From: Candidatus Latescibacterota bacterium
GTDB lineage: Bacteria > Latescibacterota > UBA2968 > UBA8231
NCBI GenBank assembly: GCA_965221775.1
Contig: CBDCSU010000006.1
Coordinates: 1,824,001 to 1,888,000 of the forward strand
DNA length: 64,000 nucleotides
Direction: 5' to 3'
Numbering within the stretch: position 1 is the stretch's first letter; every line of letters starts with the position of its first letter. A program made the position numbers and the translations under genes. The notes beneath the pieces were generated by a model that was not told the DNA's origin, ran no database searches, and saw only the letters and a list, made by a program, of their open reading frames with translations. Of the stretch, positions 51,715 through 63,047 are shown piece by piece.

Positions 51715-53190
51715 ATGTGCAAAGAAGACTCGGGCCGGCGGGGTCTGGAGCGCCGGGAGGAGGAACGCCAGGAGGCGCTTCTGGCCCACCTGGAGCGACT
51801 CCTGCCCGACCGGGGGCGGTCACAAGCCTTCCGCGCCGCCATGGTGGCCGAGCCTTCCACATGCGTGCGGCTCAACTCCCTGCTGCCGGTGGCGGAGAGT
51901 CTGCGCGGCCTGCTGGCGGAAGAGGCCGAACCGGTGCCCTGGTCCCCCGACGCCTTCACGCTGCGGACGGACAGCTCCGCCGCCGTCGGCCACAGTCTGG
52001 AGTACCGTCTTGGGGCGCTGTACGTCCAGGCCAAGGCCACCACTCTCGCCTCCGTCGTCCTCGATCCCCGCCCGGGCCAGCTCGTCCTCGACTTGGCCGC
52101 CGCCCCGGGCGGCAAGGCGACGCAGATCGCCGCGGCCCTGGGAAACACCGGGATCCTGGTCGCCAACGAGCCCGGCGCCCGGCGCCGGCCGGCGCTGGTG
52201 GGCCATCTCGAGCGCTGCGGCGCCCACAACACCCTGATCACCGGCGCCCCGGGGTCGATGATGGCGCGCTGGTTCCACAATGTCTTCGACCGGGTCCTGC
52301 TGGACGCCCCCTGCTCGGGTGACGGCATCTTGTGCAAGGACCGCCACATGCTCGCCTGGTGGTCGCCCGAAGATGCCCGCCGCAAGAGCGTGCAGCAGGT
52401 CGGCCTCCTGAGGGCCGCCTTCCACATGCTGCGGCCGGGGGGCCGCCTGGTCTACTCGACCTGTTCTCTGTCGACGGAGGAGAACGAGGATGTCCTCCTC
52501 GGGCTGGTGAAGAGGTACGGGGATCTGGCCGCCATCGAGACGGTGGCAGGGGTGAAGGCATCCGGTCTGGCGCCGGAGGCCGCCGCCCGGTATCCCGCCG
52601 CCTTCGGCGGGTGCGTCCGCGTGTGGCCCCACGAGCATGCTACAGAGGGGGCCTTCGTGGCGGCCGTGGGCAAGCAGGGGGCCACCGGATGGGACCCGGT
52701 CGAAGGCGACGCGGGTCGACTGCTGGCCGGGCCTCCCCCTGAGCCGGACCCCGCCGGCATGGCGGAGAGGATCCGCCAGCGCTGGGGCTTCTCGCCGGAA
52801 ATCGCCCCCGGCCAGGAGCTGATCGCCGGCCGGCGGCACCTGCAACTGCGGCCGGCGGGGGCCGCCCGGCTCCAGGGGGAGTTCCCGTGGTTCGTGCGCA
52901 CCGGGATGCGCGTGGCCGGTCTCCACAAGGGAGCCCTGCACCTGTCGCAGCAGGCCGTGGCTCTCTGGGGGCACCAGGTTCGCGAACGGCGCTTCGACCT
53001 ATCCTGGCCCCAGGTGGCGGCCCTCTTCCGCGGGGAAGAGGTGGACCTGCCCTCGCCGCCCGCGGGCGAGGGCATCTGCTTCCACGACGGCCACCCTGTC
53101 TGCCGGGGCCTGCCGACCGGCGAGGGCCGTCTGCGGGGCTACCTGCCCAAGGTCTCTCGGACCGACCGCCTCCAGGGGCTGTTTCGGTGA
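51715..53190 (+). CDS. RsmB/NOP family RNA m5C methyltransferase (RsmF/YebU-like)
   Basis: VLDLAAAPGGKATQ, ANE, DAPCSGDG, YSTCS..EENE, GAFVA. Confidence 0.88.
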   Translation: MCKEDSGRRGLERREEERQEALLAHLERLLPDRGRSQAFRAAMVAEPSTCVRLNSLLPVAESLRGLLAEEAEPVPWSPDAFTLRTDSSAAVGHSLEYRLGALYVQAKATTLASVVLDPRPGQLVLDLAAAPGGKATQIAAALGNTGILVANEPGARRRPALVGHLERCGAHNTLITGAPGSMMARWFHNVFDRVLLDAPCSGDGILCKDRHMLAWWSPEDARRKSVQQVGLLRAAFHMLRPGGRLVYSTCSLSTEENEDVLLGLVKRYGDLAAIETVAGVKASGLAPEAAARYPAAFGGCVRVWPHEHATEGAFVAAVGKQGATGWDPVEGDAGRLLAGPPPEPDPAGMAERIRQRWGFSPEIAPGQELIAGRRHLQLRPAGAARLQGEFPWFVRTGMRVAGLHKGALHLSQQAVALWGHQVRERRFDLSWPQVAALFRGEEVDLPSPPAGEGICFHDGHPVCRGLPTGEGRLRGYLPKVSRTDRLQGLFR

Positions 53191-54296
53191 GCCGCTCCGG
53201 CCCGACCGGGTTGGCCGGGCTGCTGGCTTGGGCCTGCCTCGTCAGCGCCCTGCCCCTTTGGGCTCAGCCCTCGGCGCACCGGCCTGTCTTCCAGAAGGGT
53301 ATGACCTTCACCCATGGCTACGGCAGCGACGACAACCTGATGTCCGGGACCTCGACGGCCGCCTTGGAGCATCTCCGCCGGGTCAACGTCGAGTGGATCG
53401 CCCTCAATCCCTTCGCCTACCAGCGCAGCGTGGACGACGCGGCCCTGCGATTCGGGAGAGACCCGCCCGACGAACATCTCCGCCACGGCATCCGCGAGGC
53501 CCGCCGGCTCGGCTTCAAGGTCATGCTCAAGCCCCACGTCTGGGTGCGCCGGCAGAGCAGCGAGCACTGGCGGGGCACCATCGGCATGGCCACGGAGGAG
53601 GCCTGGCAGCAGTGGTGGAGCCACTACGAGAGCTTCGTCCTCCACTACGCCCGCATCGCGGCGGCGGAGGGGGTGGAGATCTACTGCGTCGGCGTCGAGC
53701 TCACCCGTGTCGCCAGGGAACGGCCGGAGGACTGGCGGCGGCTGATCGCGCGAGTGCGCGAGGCCTACCCCGGGCCGCTGACGTACGCGGCCAACTGGTG
53801 GGAGGAGTACGACCGGGTCGAGTTCTGGGACGTCCTCGACTACATCGGCATCAACGCCTTCTTCCCCCTCGCCGAGCAACCGGACCCCGGCCTCGGGCCA
53901 CAGGATCCCAACCTGGAGCAGCTGCGCGCCGGCGCCGTGAGGATCGCGGACGGGATCGAGGCGCTCCAAGAGCTCACCGGACGCCCGGTGCTGCTCACGG
54001 AGATCGGCTACAAGTCGGTTCGCGGCGCCAGCCTGCGGCCCTGGGAGTGGACGCGCAGGCCGGAGCCGGACCTGTCGATGGAGGAGCAGGCCCTGTGCTA
54101 CCAGGCGGTGCTGGAGGCGTTCTGGCCGCGCCCATGGTTCCACGGCATGTACTGGTGGAAGTGGCACTCCGACCTGCGTGGCGGTGAGGAGCATGGCGGA
54201 TTCACGCCCCTCGGCAAGCCCGCCGAGAAGGTCCTCACCGAGTGGTACCAGCGTCTCCGGCCCGTGCCCTCCACCCCGGTTCGTCCCCCCCGCTAG
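53187..54296 (+). CDS. Secreted glycoside hydrolase, GH113-like TIM barrel
   Basis: Signal peptide, VMLKPHVW, GVEL, LTYAANW, LDYIGINAFFPL, LTEIGY, GMYWWKW, GFTPLGKPAE. Confidence 0.8.
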   Translation: MSRSGPTGLAGLLAWACLVSALPLWAQPSAHRPVFQKGMTFTHGYGSDDNLMSGTSTAALEHLRRVNVEWIALNPFAYQRSVDDAALRFGRDPPDEHLRHGIREARRLGFKVMLKPHVWVRRQSSEHWRGTIGMATEEAWQQWWSHYESFVLHYARIAAAEGVEIYCVGVELTRVARERPEDWRRLIARVREAYPGPLTYAANWWEEYDRVEFWDVLDYIGINAFFPLAEQPDPGLGPQDPNLEQLRAGAVRIADGIEALQELTGRPVLLTEIGYKSVRGASLRPWEWTRRPEPDLSMEEQALCYQAVLEAFWPRPWFHGMYWWKWHSDLRGGEEHGGFTPLGKPAEKVLTEWYQRLRPVPSTPVRPPR

Positions 54297-54364
54297 AAAC
54301 GGGAAACCCCTTCCCTCCGGCGGCAGCCTTTTCCCGGACAGGTGTGCGGATGGGGAGACGGGAA

Positions 54365-54380
54365 CCACCATATCTGGTGG
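54365..54380. promoter_or_regulatory. Perfect palindrome CCACCA-N4-TGGTGG upstream of the sigma54 site (possible regulator site)
   Basis: ccaccatatctggtgg, about 60-75 nt upstream of the predicted +1; followed by an AT-richer stretch. Confidence 0.4.
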
Positions 54381-54412
54381 AGCGTATTCCCCTACGATAC
54401 CATATCATGCTT

Positions 54413-54428
54413 TGGCACAGGGGTTGCA
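54413..54428 (+). promoter_or_regulatory. Sigma54 (RpoN) -24/-12 promoter
   Basis: TGGCAC-AGGGG-TTGCA (context TTTGGCACAGGGGTTGCAAG) matches TGGCAC-N5-TTGC(A/T) with exact spacing, in an intergenic region. Confidence 0.75.
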
Positions 54429-54438
54429 AGGAGACGGC

Positions 54439-54560
54439 CAACACCTCGTGACCGGGCGTTGCGTCCTCCCCGCCGCCCGGGAACGATCCCGGCGGCCGTC
54501 CCCCGGCCCCGGGTCCCGCGCCGGGCGGTCCGCTCCCCGAGACCGTCCGGCGCACCTGTT
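54439..54560 (+). ncRNA. Candidate sigma54-dependent small RNA with three C-rich-loop hairpins
   Basis: Begins at the predicted +1 of the sigma54 site; hairpins 54452-54480 (loop UCCUCCC), 54488-54513 (loop UCCCC), 54518-54553 (13-bp stem, loop CGCUCCCCGA); no plausible sense CDS follows. Confidence 0.55.
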
Positions 54561-55172
54561 CTACCCCCCCGTCCAGCGCGGGAACAGGTCGTGCTCCAGC
54601 CCCAGGAGGGAGAGGATGCGGCCGGCCATGAAGTCCCCCAGATCTTCGAAGGTCCGCGGCTTCTGGTAGAAGGCCGGCATGGCCGGCACCACCGACGCTC
54701 CGGCCTCGGCGGCGGCCACGAGGTTGCGCAGCTGGATCAGGTTCAGCGGGGTTTCACGCACCACCAGCACGAGGGGCCGCTTCTCCTTCAGAGTCACGTC
54801 CGCGGAGCGCTCGATGAGGTTCGACGAGGCGCCGCGGGCGATGCCGGAAAGGGTCTTCACCGAGCACGGCACGACGACCATGCCGTCCATCGGCGCCGAC
54901 CCGGAGGAGATCTCACGGGTCAGGTCGTTGACACCGTGTACATCGAGACTCCCCTCGCGGACCTCTTCCCCCGTGGTGCGCGCCAGGAAGTCGAAGATCG
55001 GCTCGCGGTCGGGTTCCCAGCCGAGCTCCTCGTGCATCACGTAGCGGCCGTACCGCGACATCACCAGGTGCACGTGGTGCCCGGAGGCCAGCAGCGCCCG
55101 CAGGGCGCGCGCTCCGTAGAGGGCGCCGCTGGCCCCCGTGACACCGACGACGAAAGACCTCGGCTGCCTCAC
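54561..55172 (-). CDS. ubiX: Flavin prenyltransferase UbiX/MqnM
   Basis: [53 protein letters not shown]. Confidence 0.93.
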
Positions 55173-57160
55173 GGGGAATCGTCCCCGTTCAGCGCCCGCC
55201 GGCCGGCGTCGAGCAGCTTCACGATCTCGTCGGGGTCGTAGACGCAGCCGCCCCAGGTGCCGCCGCCGGCCTGCTGCAAGGCCGCCCACAGGCGGGTGTC
55301 GTCGGGCAGCTCCTCCTCGGGCGCCAGGTCGGGTCGGGGAGGCCGGCCGGCGAGCACCCGCGCTCCCTCCTGCGCCCCGAAGACCTCCTCTCCGTGCCCC
55401 ACCAGGTCGATGCTCCCCCTCAGGTTGCGCGTGTCGATCCGGACCTCCACCACGTCGCCCTCGATCAACCGGCCGACCGGGCCGCCGGCGAGGGCCTCGG
55501 GCCCAACGTGGCCGATGCAGGGGCCGCTGGAGAACCCGGAGAACCGGGCGTCGGTCAGCAGGGCCACCTGGCCGCCGGACTCCCAGTACTTCAGCGCGAT
55601 CGTCACCTGGGCGATCTCCTCCATGCCGCTGCCCATGGGGCCGCAGGAGAGCAGCACCATCACCTCCCCGGCGGAGATCCGGCCTTCCTTGATCGCCGCC
55701 ATGGCGGCGCGCTCGGTGGTGAACATCCTGGCCGGTCCGCGCAGGCGGTAGACGCCGTCCTCGTCCAGCAGGGCCGGGTCGATGGCCGTGCTCTTCACCA
55801 CCGAGCCCTCGGGCGCCAGGTTGCCGGTGGGGAAGCAGACGGTGCTGGTCATGCCCTTGGCGCGGGCGCCGTCCGGGTCGTGGATCACGTCCCCGGGGTC
55901 GACCCCGTCGAGCGCCTGCAGCCGGTCCCGCACCCGCCGCCGGCGTTCGCTGTCCTCCCACCAGTCCAGGTTCTCGCCGAGGCTGCGGCCGGTGGCGGTG
56001 GTCGCGCCGAGGTCGAGGAGCCCCATGGCGCGCAGGTGCAGCATCACCTCGGGCACGCCGCCGGCCAGGAAGACGCGCACCGTCGGGTGGTGCGTGGGCC
56101 CGTTGGGCAGCACGTCCACCAGCCGGGGCACCTGCCGGTTCACGCGGTCCCAGTCCTCGACGGTCGGCCGCCGCAGTCCCGCGGCGTGAGCGATGGCCGG
56201 CACGTGCAGGAGCAGGTTGGTGGAGCCGCCGAAGGCGGCGTGGACGATCATGGCGTTCTCGACGGCGGCGTCGGTCAGCACGTCCGCCGAGGTGAGGCCC
56301 AGCGACTCCAGGGCGACGATGGCGCGTCCGGAGCGCAGGGCCATGTCGCGCCACACCGGCTCGCCCGAGGGAGCCAGGGCCGCGTGAGGCAGGGTGAGGC
56401 CCATGGCCTCGGCCACGACCTGGGCGGTAGCCGCCGTGCCGAGGAACTGGCAGCCGCCCCCGGGGGTGGCGCAGGCGCGGCAGCCGAGGTCGTTGACCTC
56501 GTCGATGGTGATCTCGCCGCGGGCCAGGCGCGAGCCCACCGACTGGATCTTGCCGGCGTCCTCGCCGTGCTCCGGGGGCAGGGTCACCCCTCCGGGCACC
56601 GCGACCACCGGCAGGCCGCGGGCGCCGGCGAGGGCGATCAGGATCGCCGGCAGCCCCTTGTCGCAGGTGCCCACGCCGATCACCCCGCGCCGCCGCGGCA
56701 GGGAGCGGATCAGCCGCCTCATGACGATGGCCGCGTCGTTGCGGTAGGGCAGGCTGTCGAACATCCCCGTGGTGCCCTGGGAGCGGCCGTCGCACGGGTC
56801 GGAGCAGTAGGCGGCGTAGGGGATGCTGCCGAGCCGGGTGATCTCCCGGGCGGCCTCCTCCATGAGCAGACCCACCTCCCAGTGTCCGGTGTGGTAGCCG
56901 AGGGCCACCGGCGTGCCGTCCGGAGCGCGGATACCGCCGAGGGTGCTGACGATGAGGAACTCCTTGCGCCCGAGATGGGCGGGGTTCCAGCCCATGCCGG
57001 CGTTCTGGCTGTAGGCGAAGATGTCGCCGCTCGGCGAGCCGATCACCGTCTCCTCGTCGAGGTTCAGGCGGCCTGCCGGCCCCGCGGCGCGGGTGCGGAT
57101 CTCGTAGACCTCGTCGCCGCCGCCTTCGAGGAGGTCGTCGAGGTTCACGGTCCCGGTCAC
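55169..57160 (-). CDS. YjhG/YagF-type D-xylonate dehydratase (IlvD/Edd family)
   Basis: [74 protein letters not shown]. Confidence 0.88.
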
Positions 57161-58044
57161 GGCAGGATCCGCGGAGGCTCGCCCAGCATCAGCAGGTCGG
57201 CCAGGGTGAAGGCGAGGTAGGCGACGCTCACGAGGCTGTTCATGGTCATGAAGGCGGTGTTCACCTTGGTCAGGTCGTCGGGTTTCACCAGGCGGTGCTC
57301 CCAGGCGAGCAGGGCGGCGATGGCGGCGACGCCGGCGAAGTAGACCAGGTGCAGGCCGGCGGCCAGGCCGACCCAGATCATGAACAGCACCGCGAGCAGG
57401 TGGAAAAGCCGCGCCAGGCGCAGGGCCCCGGCGAGGCCGAAGCGCGCGGGGATCGAATGCAGGCCGGCCCCGATGTCGAAGTCGTGATCCTGGCAGGCGT
57501 AGAGCACGTCGAACCCGGCGACCCAGGAAAGCACCGCCAGGCCGAGGAGGACCGGGGGCAGGTCGAAGCCGCCGGCCACAGCGATCCAGGCGCCCAGCGG
57601 GGCCAGGCCGAGGCTGGCCCCGAGGAAGAGGTGAGAGCCCCAGGTGAAACGCTTGGTGTAGGAGTAGCCGAGGATCACGGCGAGGGCCACCGGCGACAGG
57701 GCCAGGCAGAGCGGGTTCAACTGCCAGGCGGCGGCCACGAACACCGCCGAGGACAGGACGACGAAGGCGGCGGCGGCTCCCGTCGACAGGGCCCCGGTGA
57801 CCAGCTCGCGCTGCGCCGTGCGCGGGTTGTCCGCGTCGATGCGGCGGTCGACGATGCGGTTGAAGCCCATGGCCGCCGAGCGAGCCGCAACCATGGCGAC
57901 CACGATCCACAGCACCTGACGGGGGTGAATGCCGGTGACGGCGGCGGCCAGGGCGGCGCCGCTGAGGGCGAAGGGCAGGGCGAAGATGCTGTGGGAGAAC
58001 TTGATCAACCGGCCGTAGAGGAGGACCGGGGACAGGACGTTCAT
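57157..58044 (-). CDS. mqnP: UbiA-family polyprenyltransferase (MqnP-type)
   Basis: [57 protein letters not shown]. Confidence 0.88.
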
Positions 58045-58850
58045 GTGTAGAAGCGCAGCTCCGGGACGGACCCGATCAGCCCGTGACCGTGGGCGAGGCG
58101 GTAGAACTCGGTGAGGCCGGCCACCTGGGCCGGCCCCAGGTCGTAGCAGATGTGATCGCGGAGATAGCTTTCGTAGAGCTCGGCGGAGCCGGTGCGCTCG
58201 CGCTGGAAGCCGGCGGCGATCTCGGCCATGTGCGCAACTCCTTCGCGGCGGGCCCTCTGCAGGCGGGCCACGTGCTCGGCGGCGACCGCCTCTTTCTGTC
58301 CCGCCCAGAAGGCGAAGACGCCGGGCCGGCGGGTAAGCTCGTGCCATTCCCGGCCCAGGTCCAGACTGGAGCGGCCAGCGGCGCCATCGGGGCCGACCAG
58401 GGGAAGCACCGGGTCCCCGATCAGCAGGGCGGCGTCGGCGCCGTGGAGCATGGCATCGAGGTCCGGGGGAGCCGCGGCGATCTCGGGATCGATGCCGTAG
58501 CGCTCTCGAAGCAGGATCTGCAGCAGCACCACCGAGGTGCGGGAGCTGGTGTCGGCGGCGACCCGGCGCACGCGGTCCAGTCGCCCCCGGTAGAACAGGC
58601 GCACGGTCAGGACCTCGCCCTCGGAGCCGATGGCCAGGCCGGGGACGATCCGGAGGGCGGCGCCCCGCCGCGCGTACTCCACCGTGGGGATCAGGCCGAC
58701 ATCGAGGCGGCCGGAGGCGAGACGATCGGCGCAGGCCGAGGGCACGCCGTAATCCACCTCGAAGAGGTCGTCCTGATCGAGACCGTAGGTGAGAGGCCGG
58801 GAGTTGAGATAGCTCACCGCGCCGAGGCGGACGCGGCGATGGGCGCTCAT
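58041..58850 (-). CDS. mqnA: Chorismate dehydratase
   Basis: [40 protein letters not shown]. Confidence 0.88.
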
Positions 58851-60004
58851 GAAGCGGCGGCGTGCTGCAGGGCCTGCAGGCGGGGCCGGGTGGCCACCCT
58901 CTCGTAGCGCGTATTGCGCCGCACCGGGTCGAACCCGGCGTCGCGGATCAGCCGTTCCATGTTCGCCAGGTCCATCTCGTTGGTGTGGCTCGTGCCGGCG
59001 GCGCTGACCACGTTCTCCTCGAGCATGGTGCTGCCGAAATCGTCGATCCCGCAGCGCAGGCTGACCTGGGCGATCCGCGGCCCCTGGGTAACCCAGGAGG
59101 CCTGGAAGTGGTCGAAGTTGTCGAGGAAGAGGCGGCTCACGGCCACAGTCCGCAGGTGGTCGAAGCCGCTCGCTTTGACGCCGTTCCAGCGCGCCGAATC
59201 GGCGCCGAGGTCGGTCTCGTCGGGCTGGAAGTTCCAGGCTATGAAGGCGGTGAAGCCGCCGGTCTCGTCCTGCAGCTCGCGCAGCAGGCGCAGGTGCTCG
59301 AGACGGTCTTCGACGCTCTCCACGTGGCCGTACATCATCGTCGCCGTGGTGCGCATGCCGAGGCCGTGGGCGGCGCGGTGCACGTCGAGCCACTCGTCGG
59401 TACGGTCCTTGCGGAAGCCGATGACGTCGCGCACCTCGTCCACCAGGATCTCGGCGCCGGCGCCGGGGATCGAGTCGAGGCCGGCGTCGCGCAGCCGGCG
59501 GATCGTCTCCTCCAGGGAGAGCTTCGACAGGTGGGCGATGTAGATGATCTCGGTGGCCGACAGGCAGTGGAGCTGCACCGAGGGGTAGCGGCCCCGGATA
59601 CTGCTGAGCAGGTCCTCGTAGTAGTCGAGGCGGAGTTTGGGGTTGAGCCCCCCCTGCATGAGGATCTCGTTGGACTTGGGCTCGTGGCCCCCGAAGGCTA
59701 CGAGCTCGTCGATCTTGGCGAAGATCTCGTCGTGGGGAAGGGTGTAGCCCTCGTCGGACCCCGGGGGCCGGTAGAAGGCGCAGAAGTCGCACCTCACCCA
59801 GCAGACGTTGGTGTAGTTGATGTTGCGGCCCACGTTGTAGGTGACCACCGGCTCGGGGTGCTTCCGCATCCGCACCTCGTGGGCCAGCATGCTCAGCTCC
59901 GCCACGTTGGGATGGGCGAAGAGCCGGCGGGCGTCGTCGACGGTCAGCCGCTGGTCGCGGACGACCTTCCTGCCGAGGTCCTCGATGCCCCGGGACCCGT
60001 TCAT
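58847..60004 (-). CDS. mqnC: Cyclic dehypoxanthine futalosine synthase (radical SAM)
   Basis: RNINYTNVCWVRCDFCAF, LMQGG, IPGAGAEIL, TATMMYG, AFIAW.FQ, QASWVTQG, DFGSTMLEENVV. Confidence 0.9.
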   Translation of the reverse strand: MNGSRGIEDLGRKVVRDQRLTVDDARRLFAHPNVAELSMLAHEVRMRKHPEPVVTYNVGRNINYTNVCWVRCDFCAFYRPPGSDEGYTLPHDEIFAKIDELVAFGGHEPKSNEILMQGGLNPKLRLDYYEDLLSSIRGRYPSVQLHCLSATEIIYIAHLSKLSLEETIRRLRDAGLDSIPGAGAEILVDEVRDVIGFRKDRTDEWLDVHRAAHGLGMRTTATMMYGHVESVEDRLEHLRLLRELQDETGGFTAFIAWNFQPDETDLGADSARWNGVKASGFDHLRTVAVSRLFLDNFDHFQASWVTQGPRIAQVSLRCGIDDFGSTMLEENVVSAAGTSHTNEMDLANMERLIRDAGFDPVRRNTRYERVATRPRLQALQHAAAS

Positions 60005-61128
60005 CCCGCCGCCTCGCCCAGCAGCTCCTCGGTGCCGGCCACCACGTTGTAGAGGCTGTCGCGCTCCACCGGTTTCCTCCCGGCTTCCACGATGCGGCCC
60101 AGCAGCTCCCGCTGCGTCAGCCGCTGGCGGGTCGCCTCGAAGCTCTCGCGGGTGATCTCGTAGTCCATCACCGTGCCGTCGAGATCGTTGGCGCCGTACC
60201 AGAGAGCGACCTGGGAGATCTCGATGGTGTTCATGATCCAGAAGGTCTTGATGTGGGGGAAGTTGTCGAGCATCAGGCGTCCCACGGCGATCTCGCGCAG
60301 ATCGAGCTGTCCGGTGGGGCCGGGGAGGTGGTCGATCTCGGTGCGCTCGGGATGGAAGGAGAGAGGGATATAGCACAGGAAGCCGCCGGTCTCGTCCTGC
60401 ACCTCCCGCAGCCGCGTCAGGTGGTAGACCTTCTCCTCCGTGTTCTCCACGTGGCCGTAGAGCATGGTGGCGTTGGTGGGCAGGCCGCTGCGGTGAGCGG
60501 CGGCGGCGATCTCCAGCCAGTCCTCGGAGTCGGCCTTGGTCCAGAACAGGTCCTCCTGGACGCGGTCGGAGAACACCTCGGCGCCGCCCCCGGGAAGCGA
60601 CTCCAGGCCGGCCTCGCGCAGATCCGCGAAGACCTCCTCCATGGGCATGCGGGCCACCCTCTGGATCTGGGCCATCTCGATCATGGTGAAGGCCTTGAGG
60701 TGGGCCTCCGGCCGGGCCGCCTTCATGGCCCGCATCAGGTCGAGGTAGTACTGATACGGCAGCTTGGGGTTGACGCCTCCCACCATGTGGATCTCGGTGA
60801 TCGGCGCATCGCCGTAGTCGTGGATGCGGCGCGCCACCTGCTCCGGATCGAGGACATAGCCCCGGTCGTCCTTCGGCTTGACGTAGAAGGAGCAGAACTT
60901 GCACAGCTTGTTGCAGATGTTGGTGTAGTTGATGTGCTGGTTGCGCACGTAGTAGGTGAGATCCCCATGCCGAGCCTCGCGCACCAAGTTGGCCAGGTAC
61001 CCGAGGGCGGGAAGGTCGGGGCACTCGTACAGGCGCAAGCCGTCGTCGGCCGACAGGCGCTGGCCGTCGAGGACCTTGGCGTGCACGTCGGCCAGACCGG
61101 CGCGCTCGATTTGTCGTTCGAGGATCAA
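60001..61128 (-). CDS. mqnE: Aminofutalosine synthase (radical SAM); start uncertain
   Basis: HINYTNICNKLCKFCSF, EIHMVGG, HLKAFT..E, LPGGGAEVF, NATMLYGHVE, DNFPHIK.FW, DLDGTV, VERDSLYN. Confidence 0.88.
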   Translation of the reverse strand: MILERQIERAGLADVHAKVLDGQRLSADDGLRLYECPDLPALGYLANLVREARHGDLTYYVRNQHINYTNICNKLCKFCSFYVKPKDDRGYVLDPEQVARRIHDYGDAPITEIHMVGGVNPKLPYQYYLDLMRAMKAARPEAHLKAFTMIEMAQIQRVARMPMEEVFADLREAGLESLPGGGAEVFSDRVQEDLFWTKADSEDWLEIAAAAHRSGLPTNATMLYGHVENTEEKVYHLTRLREVQDETGGFLCYIPLSFHPERTEIDHLPGPTGQLDLREIAVGRLMLDNFPHIKTFWIMNTIEISQVALWYGANDLDGTVMDYEITRESFEATRQRLTQRELLGRIVEAGRKPVERDSLYNVVAGTEELLGEAAG

Positions 61129-61918: not shown

Positions 61919-61958
61919 CTAGGGGCGGTCCTTCGCGGCCCTTTCGGTGGACGTATCC

Positions 61959-63047
61959 ATGAGTGAGCGCGAGCCTACCGGTTCCGGGAACCGGTGTCAA
62001 TCGGACGAGACGCCGGCCTTCCTGGCTTGGGAGGCCCTGCGGGCCATGCCCGACGCGGTGGTGCTCTTCGACGACGGGGGTGCCGTCAGCTTCGCCAATA
62101 GGGCGGCTTCCGAGCTGCTGGGGGAGGCCGCGCAGGCCGGGGCGAGCCGGAGCGCCGCCCTCGAGCGCTCGGCCCCCCTGGCGGACCTGGTGAGCCAGGC
62201 CTGGCGCAGCCGAGACCCGCGCACGGCGGTGGACGTGCCCTGCGACGGCCGCCGCCTGCGGGCCTGGGTGACCCCCTTCGACGGGGGCTGCCTGCTCATT
62301 CTGCGCGAGTCCACGGGGGATCCCCCCGACCGGCACCTGTGGCAGGCGGAGCGGATGGCGGCCCTCGGGCGGCTGGCCGGATCGGTGGCCCACGAGGTGC
62401 GCAATCCCCTCGGCGCCGTGGACATCCAGCTTCAACTGCTGGCCCGGGACGCCGAGTCCCTCGGGGAAGAGACCGCCGACCGCGTGCGCGAGCGCGTCGG
62501 CCGGGCGCGGGCGGAGGTCCGCCGACTCGACGGCATCGTGCAGAACTTCCTCCGGTTCTCGCGCCCGCCCGAGGTGCGCCTGGCGCCGACGGACCCGGCC
62601 CTGGTGGTGCAGCGCATGCACGAGCTGGTTGCACCCGAGGCCCGGGAGCGGGGCATCCGTCTCGAGCTGGTCCTGCCGCCGCAGGTCCCGCCGGTGCACG
62701 CCGACGAGAACATGCTCAGCCAGGCGCTGCTGAACGTGCTGATCAACGCCTTCCAGGCGGTGGAGGAGGCCGGCGAGGATGCCCTCGTGGAGCTGACTCT
62801 CGAGGAGGCGCAGCCGGCGGAGGTGCGGATCCAGGTGAACGACAACGGTTGCGGAGTGGCCCCCGAGGATCTGGAGAGGGTTTTCGAGTACTACTATACT
62901 ACCAAGGACAGCGGCACCGGCCTGGGACTCTCCATCGCCCAGGGCATCCTGCGGCAGCACGGCGGCAGCCTGCATCTGACCAGCCGCCCCCAGGGCGGAA
63001 CCACTGTCTCCCTTCTCCTGCCCACCGGTTCCCCCAACCCCTCCTGA
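61959..63047 (+). CDS. Cytoplasmic PAS-domain sensor histidine kinase (NtrB/AtoS-like)
   Basis: PAS-like MPDAVVLFD..G.VSFANRAA, H-box AHEVRNPL, N-box NVLINA, DNGCG, TTKDSGTGLGL; no TM helix. Confidence 0.9.
   Translation: MSEREPTGSGNRCQSDETPAFLAWEALRAMPDAVVLFDDGGAVSFANRAASELLGEAAQAGASRSAALERSAPLADLVSQAWRSRDPRTAVDVPCDGRRLRAWVTPFDGGCLLILRESTGDPPDRHLWQAERMAALGRLAGSVAHEVRNPLGAVDIQLQLLARDAESLGEETADRVRERVGRARAEVRRLDGIVQNFLRFSRPPEVRLAPTDPALVVQRMHELVAPEARERGIRLELVLPPQVPPVHADENMLSQALLNVLINAFQAVEEAGEDALVELTLEEAQPAEVRIQVNDNGCGVAPEDLERVFEYYYTTKDSGTGLGLSIAQGILRQHGGSLHLTSRPQGGTTVSLLLPTGSPNPS

Follow-up and report, generated by a model that had tools for sequence, protein, structure and literature searches.

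Which product, if any, is encoded in a 264-nt gap between two convergent genes that carries a promoter of the sigma-54 type and no evident coding sequence behind it? The question is raised by a stretch of 64,000 nucleotides from Candidatus Latescibacterota bacterium (GenBank assembly GCA_965221775.1, contig CBDCSU010000006.1, positions 1,824,001 to 1,888,000 of the forward strand), referred to as the window, whose numbering is used throughout. An earlier, sequence-only reading had proposed that the gap holds an orphan sigma-54 promoter and an unannotated small RNA (sRNA) of three hairpins, acting as a translational regulator through loops that would pair with ribosome-binding sites. The comparison with related genomes makes it highly probable that the feature is a sigma-54-dependent non-coding RNA gene. 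The chances appear evenly balanced that it is, in full, the gene for a sigma-54-dependent regulatory RNA of about 120 nt with anti-Shine-Dalgarno-like loops and a trimmed form, devoid of open reading frames (ORFs), of an undescribed locus.

Promoter and predicted RNA

The features of the gap and its two flanking genes are as follows.

54413-54428, + strand: -24/-12 promoter TGGCAC-N5-TTGCA (TGGCAC at 54413-54418, TTGCA at 54424-54428), 0 mismatches
54439-54560, + strand: small RNA predicted at about 118-125 nt, with the base of hairpin 3 taken for its 3' end
54446-54486, + strand: hairpin 1, loop UCCUCCC at 54464-54470 (minimum-energy fold)
54488-54513, + strand: hairpin 2, loop UCCCC at 54499-54503 (minimum-energy fold)
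54518-54553, + strand: hairpin 3, canonical CUCCCC module, loop motif at 54533-54538 (fold and match to model R2)
52887-54296, + strand: upstream neighbour, GH113-family glycoside hydrolase (Pfam PF22612, E 5.9e-60)
54561-55241, - strand: convergent neighbour, UbiX-type flavoprotein of the flavin prenyltransferase family, stop codon at 54561-54563 (Pfam PF02441, E 4.5e-42)

The window genome (G000) has 5.36 Mb and is 96.8% complete; the other G numbers denote related genomes, and f1 their family within the Latescibacterota. Five genomes of the same genus (G000, G002, G004, G006 and G007) constitute the RNA-bearing clade. Three models were used: R1 for the whole window RNA, R2 for the CUCCCC hairpin module, and R3 for the 5' RNA of about 110 nt found in relatives. 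R2 was built from 16 hairpins of 8 genomes, with hairpin 3 of the window among its training rows. The f1 samples comprised 76 genomes in the R1, ORF B and first R2 searches and 63 in the R3 and second R2 searches, and the outgroup sample for R2 and R3 consisted of 87 genomes from 13 other families.

The length and coordinates of the gap between the GH113-like (+) and ubiX (-) genes were as the sequence-only reading had given them, and its near-perfect -24/-12 element on the + strand was present, with GG and GC ten bases apart and a predicted +1 at about 54439. The rpoN gene, whose absence that reading had named as a refutation, was found in the window genome (Sigma54_DBD, 206.8 bits), together with 15 strong genes for bacterial enhancer-binding proteins (Sigma54_activat matches of at least 213 bits). 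No sigma-70-like promoter was found on either strand in 53800-55300.

TGGCAC and TTGC were invariant in the five clade genomes, among which the N5 spacer differs. The exact core TGGCAC-N5-TTGC was present in all 16 related loci first examined (five with the R1 RNA and 11 with ORF B, described below) and in 3/3 loci of the genus g22. Ten further loci were found with R2, nine of them with usable upstream DNA (the locus of G003 lies at a contig edge); three of the nine had the exact core and six were one letter off, keeping GG and GC. The distance from the promoter to the start of the conserved RNA of the relatives is fixed. Judged by these alignments, the promoter is conserved among orthologous loci more strongly than neutral drift would leave it.

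On the + strand, the fold of 54439-54570 has an energy of -75.4 kcal/mol; dinucleotide shuffles gave -55.7 ± 3.5 (z -5.71, none of 200 as good), so that the proposed comparison with shuffled controls came out far in favour of this strand; on the - strand, z was -1.54 and 14 of 200 shuffles were as good. The minimum-energy fold agrees with the three successive GC hairpins with C-rich loops that had been read from about 54439. Hairpin 1 comprises an outer helix UCGU/ACGA, followed by CCGGGCG/CGCCCGG and GCG/CGC, and its loop with the next base reads CUCCCC. Hairpin 3 matched R2 with 41.5 bits (E 1.5e-5), as one of its training rows, and carries the invariant G·U pair of the module at 54525·54546; it is the only hairpin of the window RNA that is a canonical conserved module.

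No Rfam family matched the gap up to E 10 in a search of 53800-55200, in accordance with the suggestion of an unannotated RNA, possibly new for this lineage of an uncultured phylum. With R1 and R2, no second copy was found in the window genome, where an R2 match at C4:406621 had an E value of 0.028. JGI metagenome contigs, scanned for exact copies of a 26-letter stretch of hairpin 2, yielded 0 matches.

Conservation in sister species

The gap could be aligned in four of 41 related genomes, all of the same genus (G004, G002 and G007 at 89-90%, G006 at 80%). Over 54439-54556, identity to the window RNA was 118/118 in G004, 117/118 in G002, 115/118 in G007 and 109/119 in G006; the four sister species thus share 92-100% of the RNA with the window, against 75-93% of silent codon positions. 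In G006, 149/199 third codon positions of ubiX, 381/469 of the GH113 gene and 81/118 positions of the 5' gap were identical to the window, and hairpins 2 and 3 together reached 67/69. Hairpin 2 kept 26/27 to 27/27 positions in the four relatives. Among the 76 f1 genomes, R1 matched only G000 and its four sisters, with a partial, weak match in G005.

That the promoter drives a small protein-coding gene within the gap is very improbable. Open reading frames of 163, 69 and 299 aa on the + strand do overlap the gap, and small proteins are encoded behind the same promoter in relatives; nevertheless, the RNA of G006 carries indels of +1, -2 and +1 inside an otherwise near-identical stretch, which break the frames and rule out a conserved reading frame. 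The gap-spanning frames have no Pfam match, and ORF B of the relatives was not found in the window genome. The earlier statement that no credible coding sequence follows the promoter therefore holds. The sequence comparison supports, as the product of the window locus, a structured + strand RNA that would be under purifying selection.

The CUCCCC hairpin module

The alignment of the 16 module hairpins is gapless around the loop. In it, 93.8% of the cells pair, versus 31-41% with slid partners; both sides change in 11 of 13 pairs, and the covariation score was reached by none of 500 shuffles. These figures lean towards structure, since the rows were picked by their loop motif and the structure was taken from the same sequences; the slid-partner controls speak against an artefact. 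The CUCCCC loop and one G·U pair were invariant in 16/16 modules. This pair lies five pairs below the closing C-G pairs, in a stem that otherwise covaries freely, and supports the + strand because the other strand would have C·A.

Non-training hairpins were found by R2 in G003, G024, G049-G053, G055, G056 and G070. At E ≤ 0.05, matches were obtained in 28 of 76 f1 genomes, and at E ≤ 0.001 in 21/63 f1 genomes and 0/87 genomes of other families. They occur as one to five tandem copies at one place per genome, and all ten new loci lie directly beside a convergent ubiX. Matches in G001, G011, G016, G018, G021 and G087 (E 1.9e-4 to 0.04) had no ubiX in flanks of about 1.5 kb and were read as chance; those in G011, G016, G021 and G087 also lie away from the R3 match of the same genome. 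In G022 (L042, about 1840-1960 of the oriented locus), the hairpin array is interrupted by a run of N (bases withheld or unassembled), and the module count is at least four.

The fixed pair allows another reading, in which the RNA is real and sigma-54 driven and binds a protein or an RNase, the CUCCCC hairpins being recognition modules of a decoy or sponge like CsrB/RsmZ or GlmY. The invariance of the G·U in an otherwise covarying stem and the tandem copies of the module would suit such a role, as would the failure to find either a conserved mRNA target or Hfq, and GlmY offers the reported precedent of a sigma-54-dependent decoy RNA. No candidate partner is known, the arginine-rich ORF B being absent from most module-bearing genomes, and hairpins 1 and 2 of the window are conserved though they lack the G·U. 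A protein-binding RNA is accordingly regarded as unlikely, if the least unlikely of the four alternatives weighed here.

The locus in related genomes

In relatives, the locus is composed of the sigma-54 promoter and a covarying RNA of about 110 nt, convergent to ubiX, followed by a U-run alone, by one or two small ORFs, and/or by one to five CUCCCC hairpins. This RNA consists of a long helix and an inner hairpin, with a loop, CUCCUCGCG, that hardly varies; across ten sequences, compensatory changes were seen at 15 of the 23 pairs predicted for it. R3 matched 35/63 f1 genomes at one locus per genome and 0/87 genomes of other families; the match in G004, one of the 35, is weak and off-locus. From these matches, the locus appears to be present in more than half of the sampled f1 genomes.

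Several forms were distinguished. In G009 (same genus) and G014 (another genus), a small ORF is followed by hairpins with loops CCUCCCC, UCUCCCC or ACUCCCC, again convergent to ubiX. G051-G053, G055 and G024 hold the promoter, the 5' RNA, a hydrophobic ORF A and three modules, and the module loci of G049, G050, G056 and G070 are devoid of any ORF. ORF-less forms occur in at least three other lineages (G056/G070, G049/G050 and G045-47). A U-run comes after the last module in several genomes. In g22 (3/3 genomes), the promoter and the RNA of about 110 nt are followed by a run of U9-10 and at once by the ubiX stop, with no ORF or extra hairpin; by its sequence this locus appears to be a textbook stand-alone sRNA gene on the + strand, and the orientation of its hairpin and U-run supports the + strand for the window RNA as well. 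The bare sRNA gene of g22 is located at L177:1482-1620 (G045) and also in L178 and L180.

ORF B encodes 52-70 aa, is arginine-rich and shows the pattern RWY..QL..LP..SRRRLS (for example L035:1501-1653, G009). It was found in 11 of 76 f1 genomes and in none of the five with R1, and a profile run against 168 genomes from across the phylum added just one weak match, outside f1; in the window genome it was not found by protein query or by profile. ORF A encodes about 57-68 aa with one hydrophobic stretch (L036:1295-1498, G005; L141:1235-1405, G055). Neither has a Pfam or NCBIfam family, and the two represent small-protein families, so far undescribed, that relatives encode downstream of the same sigma-54 promoter.

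Equally far from the promoter, the 5' ends of the window RNA (AACACCUCGUG...CCGGG) and of the relatives' RNA resemble each other, and the loop of hairpin 1 aligns with the internal ACUCCCC stretch of the latter. Hairpin 1 may thus be the shrunken 5' domain of that RNA, a homology which, as R3 has no match in the window, we infer only. In the window clade the ORFs and the canonical 5' domain are gone, and the promoter, a UCCUCCC(C) hairpin, a second C-loop hairpin and one CUCCCC module are left. The window element is very probably a lineage-specific, ORF-less rebuild of an undescribed family-wide locus. The 'orphan' label given to the promoter is right in that no coding sequence lies downstream, and is wrong in implying isolation, since the promoter belongs to the local ORF-less form of this locus.

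The same losses would be expected if the element were a decaying remnant of the relatives' operon, its promoter silent and its hairpins retained just to form 3' ends or terminators for the convergent genes: ORFs, canonical 5' domain and AT-rich upstream region have all disappeared, hairpins arise readily at 72% G+C, and those of the window abut the ubiX stop. Decay is nevertheless improbable. Across five species the region has changed less than silent codon sites have, the -24/-12 letters stay fixed beside a drifting spacer, the - strand folds no better than shuffles and there is no U-run, and other lineages have independently retained a promoter and RNA with no ORF.

A slightly lower probability still is given to an effect of the promoter in cis on ubiX, in which read-through or 3' overlap would lower its expression by collision or antisense and the hairpins would be incidental. 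The promoter of the window is directed at the 3' end of ubiX, which is the convergent neighbour of the RNA locus at every related locus checked; moreover, 7 nt separate the end of hairpin 3 from the ubiX stop, and no U-tract follows the hairpin. On the other hand, the RNA of relatives ends in hairpin and U-run terminators ahead of ubiX (G070, G052-55, G045-47, G005 and G014), which shows that read-through is not the conserved feature, and the invariant loop motif and G·U would be left unexplained.

Upstream region and candidate activator

Features outside the RNA that may bear on its control are listed below.

54298-54339: conserved upstream block with a GGGAA...TTTTCCC inverted repeat, just 3' of the GH113 stop
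54365-54380: palindrome CCACCATATCTGGTGG, read in the sequence, possible protein-binding site
61947-63047, + strand: histidine kinase (Pfam); from 63070 past the window end: NtrC-type response regulator with a sigma-54 interaction domain (Pfam)

The block at 54298-54339 is nearly invariant in the five clade genomes, the rest of the 5' gap being 69-80% identical. In 13 other genomes a similar block with TTTTCCC at its end is placed at -193 to -195 relative to the promoter; in the window the position is -84. It is a candidate activator site or part of a regulatory region. The exact palindrome of 54365-54380 occurs in G000, G002 and G007, an altered form in G004 and a diverged one in G006; ACCATATC is repeated at 54399-54406, this second copy varying within the clade, and CCACCATAT is also found upstream of the promoter in genus g22. 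On this weak evidence, the palindrome may be a protein-binding site.

The histidine kinase and the NtrC-type regulator, 8.5 kb from the RNA locus, are a candidate activator pair for its promoter. An ortholog of the NtrC-type activator was present 7.8-8.5 kb from the RNA locus in 5/5 genomes of three genera (63-97% identity; paralogs ≤ 47%); as the whole block is syntenic, this distance is a lead and not evidence of regulation. A second exact TGGCAC-N5-TTGC lies at G000:C6:1888577, 577 nt past the window end and about 30 nt after a 492-codon open frame that holds the activator gene. The regions upstream of the two promoters share no 9-letter word, only shorter GC-rich words, and show no link.

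Proposed mode of action

In the mechanism proposed, RNA polymerase with sigma-54 would transcribe the RNA of about 120 nt from TGGCAC-N5-TTGCA upon the action of an enhancer-binding activator. The exposed C-rich loops (CUCC) would then base-pair with segments of other RNAs that are rich in G and like a Shine-Dalgarno sequence, so that these RNAs would be translated less or become less stable. The comparison shows the anatomy of the locus, its conservation and strand, the covariation of the module and of the relatives' RNA, and the confinement to one locus and one family; we infer that the RNA is transcribed and depends on sigma-54 in vivo, where it ends and how it would pair. By analogy with known C-loop RNAs, loop pairing with Shine-Dalgarno-like sites would be the likeliest action, with a probability at or a little below even chances.

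All forms of the locus have in common at least two exposed C-rich motifs (CUCCCC, CUCCUC or a 5' CCUC), and all of these contain CUCC, the complement of the Shine-Dalgarno core GGAG. The motifs resemble the 16S rRNA tail of the window genome, which reads CCUCCU, and around crudely called gene starts GGAG is most frequent at -13 to -9, with 95-134 per position versus about 35. When GGGGAG ahead of a start codon and a long ORF was scanned for, 383 sites were obtained, of which many must be internal. This crude scan, with the comparison of sister genomes, yielded no conserved mRNA target. Of the translational regulator first proposed, the conserved promoter, the structured + strand RNA and the C-rich loops were borne out, and a conserved target was not.

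Points weighing against this proposal

Several results weigh against a sigma-54-dependent, base-pairing RNA in the window. The promoter motif had one match in the window versus 1.03 expected, hence no excess, and its exact cores in the genome numbered 15 versus 6-12 in five local shuffles and are not enriched; alone, the motif is at chance level, so that the comparison between genomes carries the case. The AT-rich box about 100 nt upstream in relatives is missing, and the control region of the window is about 110 bp shorter than theirs; with this shortened region, activation of the promoter may differ or be lost in the window clade.

Among the five clade genomes, none of the 39 predicted pairs showed a compensatory change. 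Three were broken, each in one genome, including two pairs of hairpin 1, neither of which was compensated; hairpin 2 lacks covariation because it lacks variation. Hairpins 1 and 2 have no match to R2, and R3, the canonical 5' domain with loop CUCCUCGCG, had none in G000, G006 and G007. Of the expectation that promoter and loops would be conserved while the stems covary, the promoter, the C-rich loops and the hairpin 3 module stood; hairpins 1 and 2 are conserved without covariation. At the 3' end, the caveat of the first reading that a strong U-tract is lacking is justified, as none follows hairpin 3 and no terminator-like sites were found on either strand in 53800-55300.

Parts of the stretch occurred in RNA-library runs from sponge and marine metatranscriptomes, and in four runs compared with the window the Logan contigs were 90-95% alike. 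One contig spans the GH113 gene to 54528 and another the region upstream of the promoter to 54544. Contigs that include promoter or GH113 DNA show neither start nor strand, and with DNA carry-over possible they give no verdict on expression.

At the best target site, the hairpin 1 loop matches the ribosome-binding site of a gene at G000:C5:453624 perfectly over 12 nt; the site was kept in G004 and not in G002, G006 or G007, and was dropped as chance. This gene has no Pfam match in its first 225 residues. A search for the Hfq domain gave 0 candidates in the 96.8% complete genome; Qrr RNAs require Hfq. If Hfq were absent across the lineage, a base-pairing sRNA there would act without it. Finally, a fixed G·U in the stem suits recognition by a protein or RNase as much as base pairing.

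Comparison with known systems

The window RNA shares with the cuckoo RNAs of the Alphaproteobacteria (CcsR1-4 / RSs0680, ar14 RF02344 and NfeR1) the arrangement of adjacent hairpins with a C-rich loop on variable stems. Cuckoo RNAs have two to four such hairpins, each loop with CCUCCUCCC (PMC4615179), and are often in tandem and beside a small ORF in either untranslated region, ORF-free forms being also known (PMC4615179, PMC8034643). The window has three hairpins, and the f1 locus is likewise linked with small ORFs, tandem copies and ORF-free forms. In contrast to CCUCCUCCC, the window loops read UCCUCCC, UCCCC and CUCCC(C), and the module motif is CUCCCC. The promoter here is of the sigma-54 type instead of RpoHI/HII or sigma-70, the phylum is another, and the G·U is invariant; furthermore, the small ORFs of f1 are not DUF1127 (no Pfam match) and no Hfq was found in G000. 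The hairpin array of G054 matched ar14 (RF02344) below threshold (23.4 vs 58.8 bits), and the window did not match it. The best Rfam likeness of the related loci was to ar7 (RF02342), an alphaproteobacterial sRNA with C-rich loops, which the array of G060 matched with 32.2 bits (E 0.0044), under the gathering score of 60, and the window not at all. Because of this score and the unrelated lineage, the likeness is one of shape and not of membership. By analogy the window RNA would resemble cuckoo RNAs in its working; on that family's defining features it is not a member.

GlmY/GlmZ of Enterobacteriaceae and Qrr of Vibrio are likewise sRNA genes behind a -24/-12 promoter activated by a response-regulator enhancer-binding protein (PMC3045617, PMC10162802). 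They have no likeness to the window RNA in sequence or structure (no Rfam match), and GlmY acts as a decoy. RNAIII and UCCC-motif sRNAs of S. aureus have several loops that carry a short C-rich motif, and the C-rich loops of cuckoo RNAs and RNAIII are read as pairing with ribosome-binding sites, as anti-Shine-Dalgarno elements (PMC4615179). The S. aureus RNAs are unrelated and have other promoters, so the comparison is one of motif likeness. Intrinsic terminators too are GC hairpins between convergent genes next to a stop codon, and a U-run stands behind the last module of relatives; unlike them, the window has no U-run on either strand, and the loop and G·U stay the same from genus to genus, a constancy that a terminator would not require.

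Neighbouring genes

The ubiX gene is the last of a - strand run at 55169-61024, which also holds a gene of the dihydroxy-acid/6-phosphogluconate dehydratase family, a UbiA prenyltransferase gene, a VitK2_biosynth menaquinone-biosynthesis gene and a radical-SAM CofH/MqnC-like gene. The run looks like a futalosine-type menaquinone cluster. Within the GH113 gene, a GC hairpin at 54023-54076 (-) gave a sub-threshold Rfam match to the Pseudomonas sRNA P35 (26.9 vs 70 bits, E 0.14), most likely by chance at such G+C content. The P35 and MIR918 matches of Rfam both lie inside the flanking genes and far under threshold, and were set aside.

Significance

A limited and weak literature search and Rfam 15 gave no regulatory RNA of Latescibacterota on record. 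The models R1-R3 describe an undescribed RNA locus with two covarying parts, a conserved sigma-54 promoter and a fixed genomic address, and the evidence behind them is enough to seed an RNA family. One family and one promoter type here include a bare sRNA, sRNAs with small ORFs and hairpin arrays, so that the locus offers a natural series for the conversion between sRNA and small-protein mRNA. Should the loops indeed capture Shine-Dalgarno-like sites, the cuckoo-RNA design would have been invented a second time, independently. A broader possibility, put forward tentatively and with less confidence than the loop pairing, is that the CUCCCC hairpin with its G·U is the recognition module of an unknown sigma-54-switched RNA-protein or RNA-RNA system. 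The locus would then have moved repeatedly among three states (an sRNA standing alone, an RNA of dual function that also encodes one or two small proteins, and an array of several modules), and in the window the 5' domain would have been replaced by module-like hairpins. Were that so, the modules would represent a new class of modular regulators, and this in a phylum for which neither a cultured member nor an sRNA is known.

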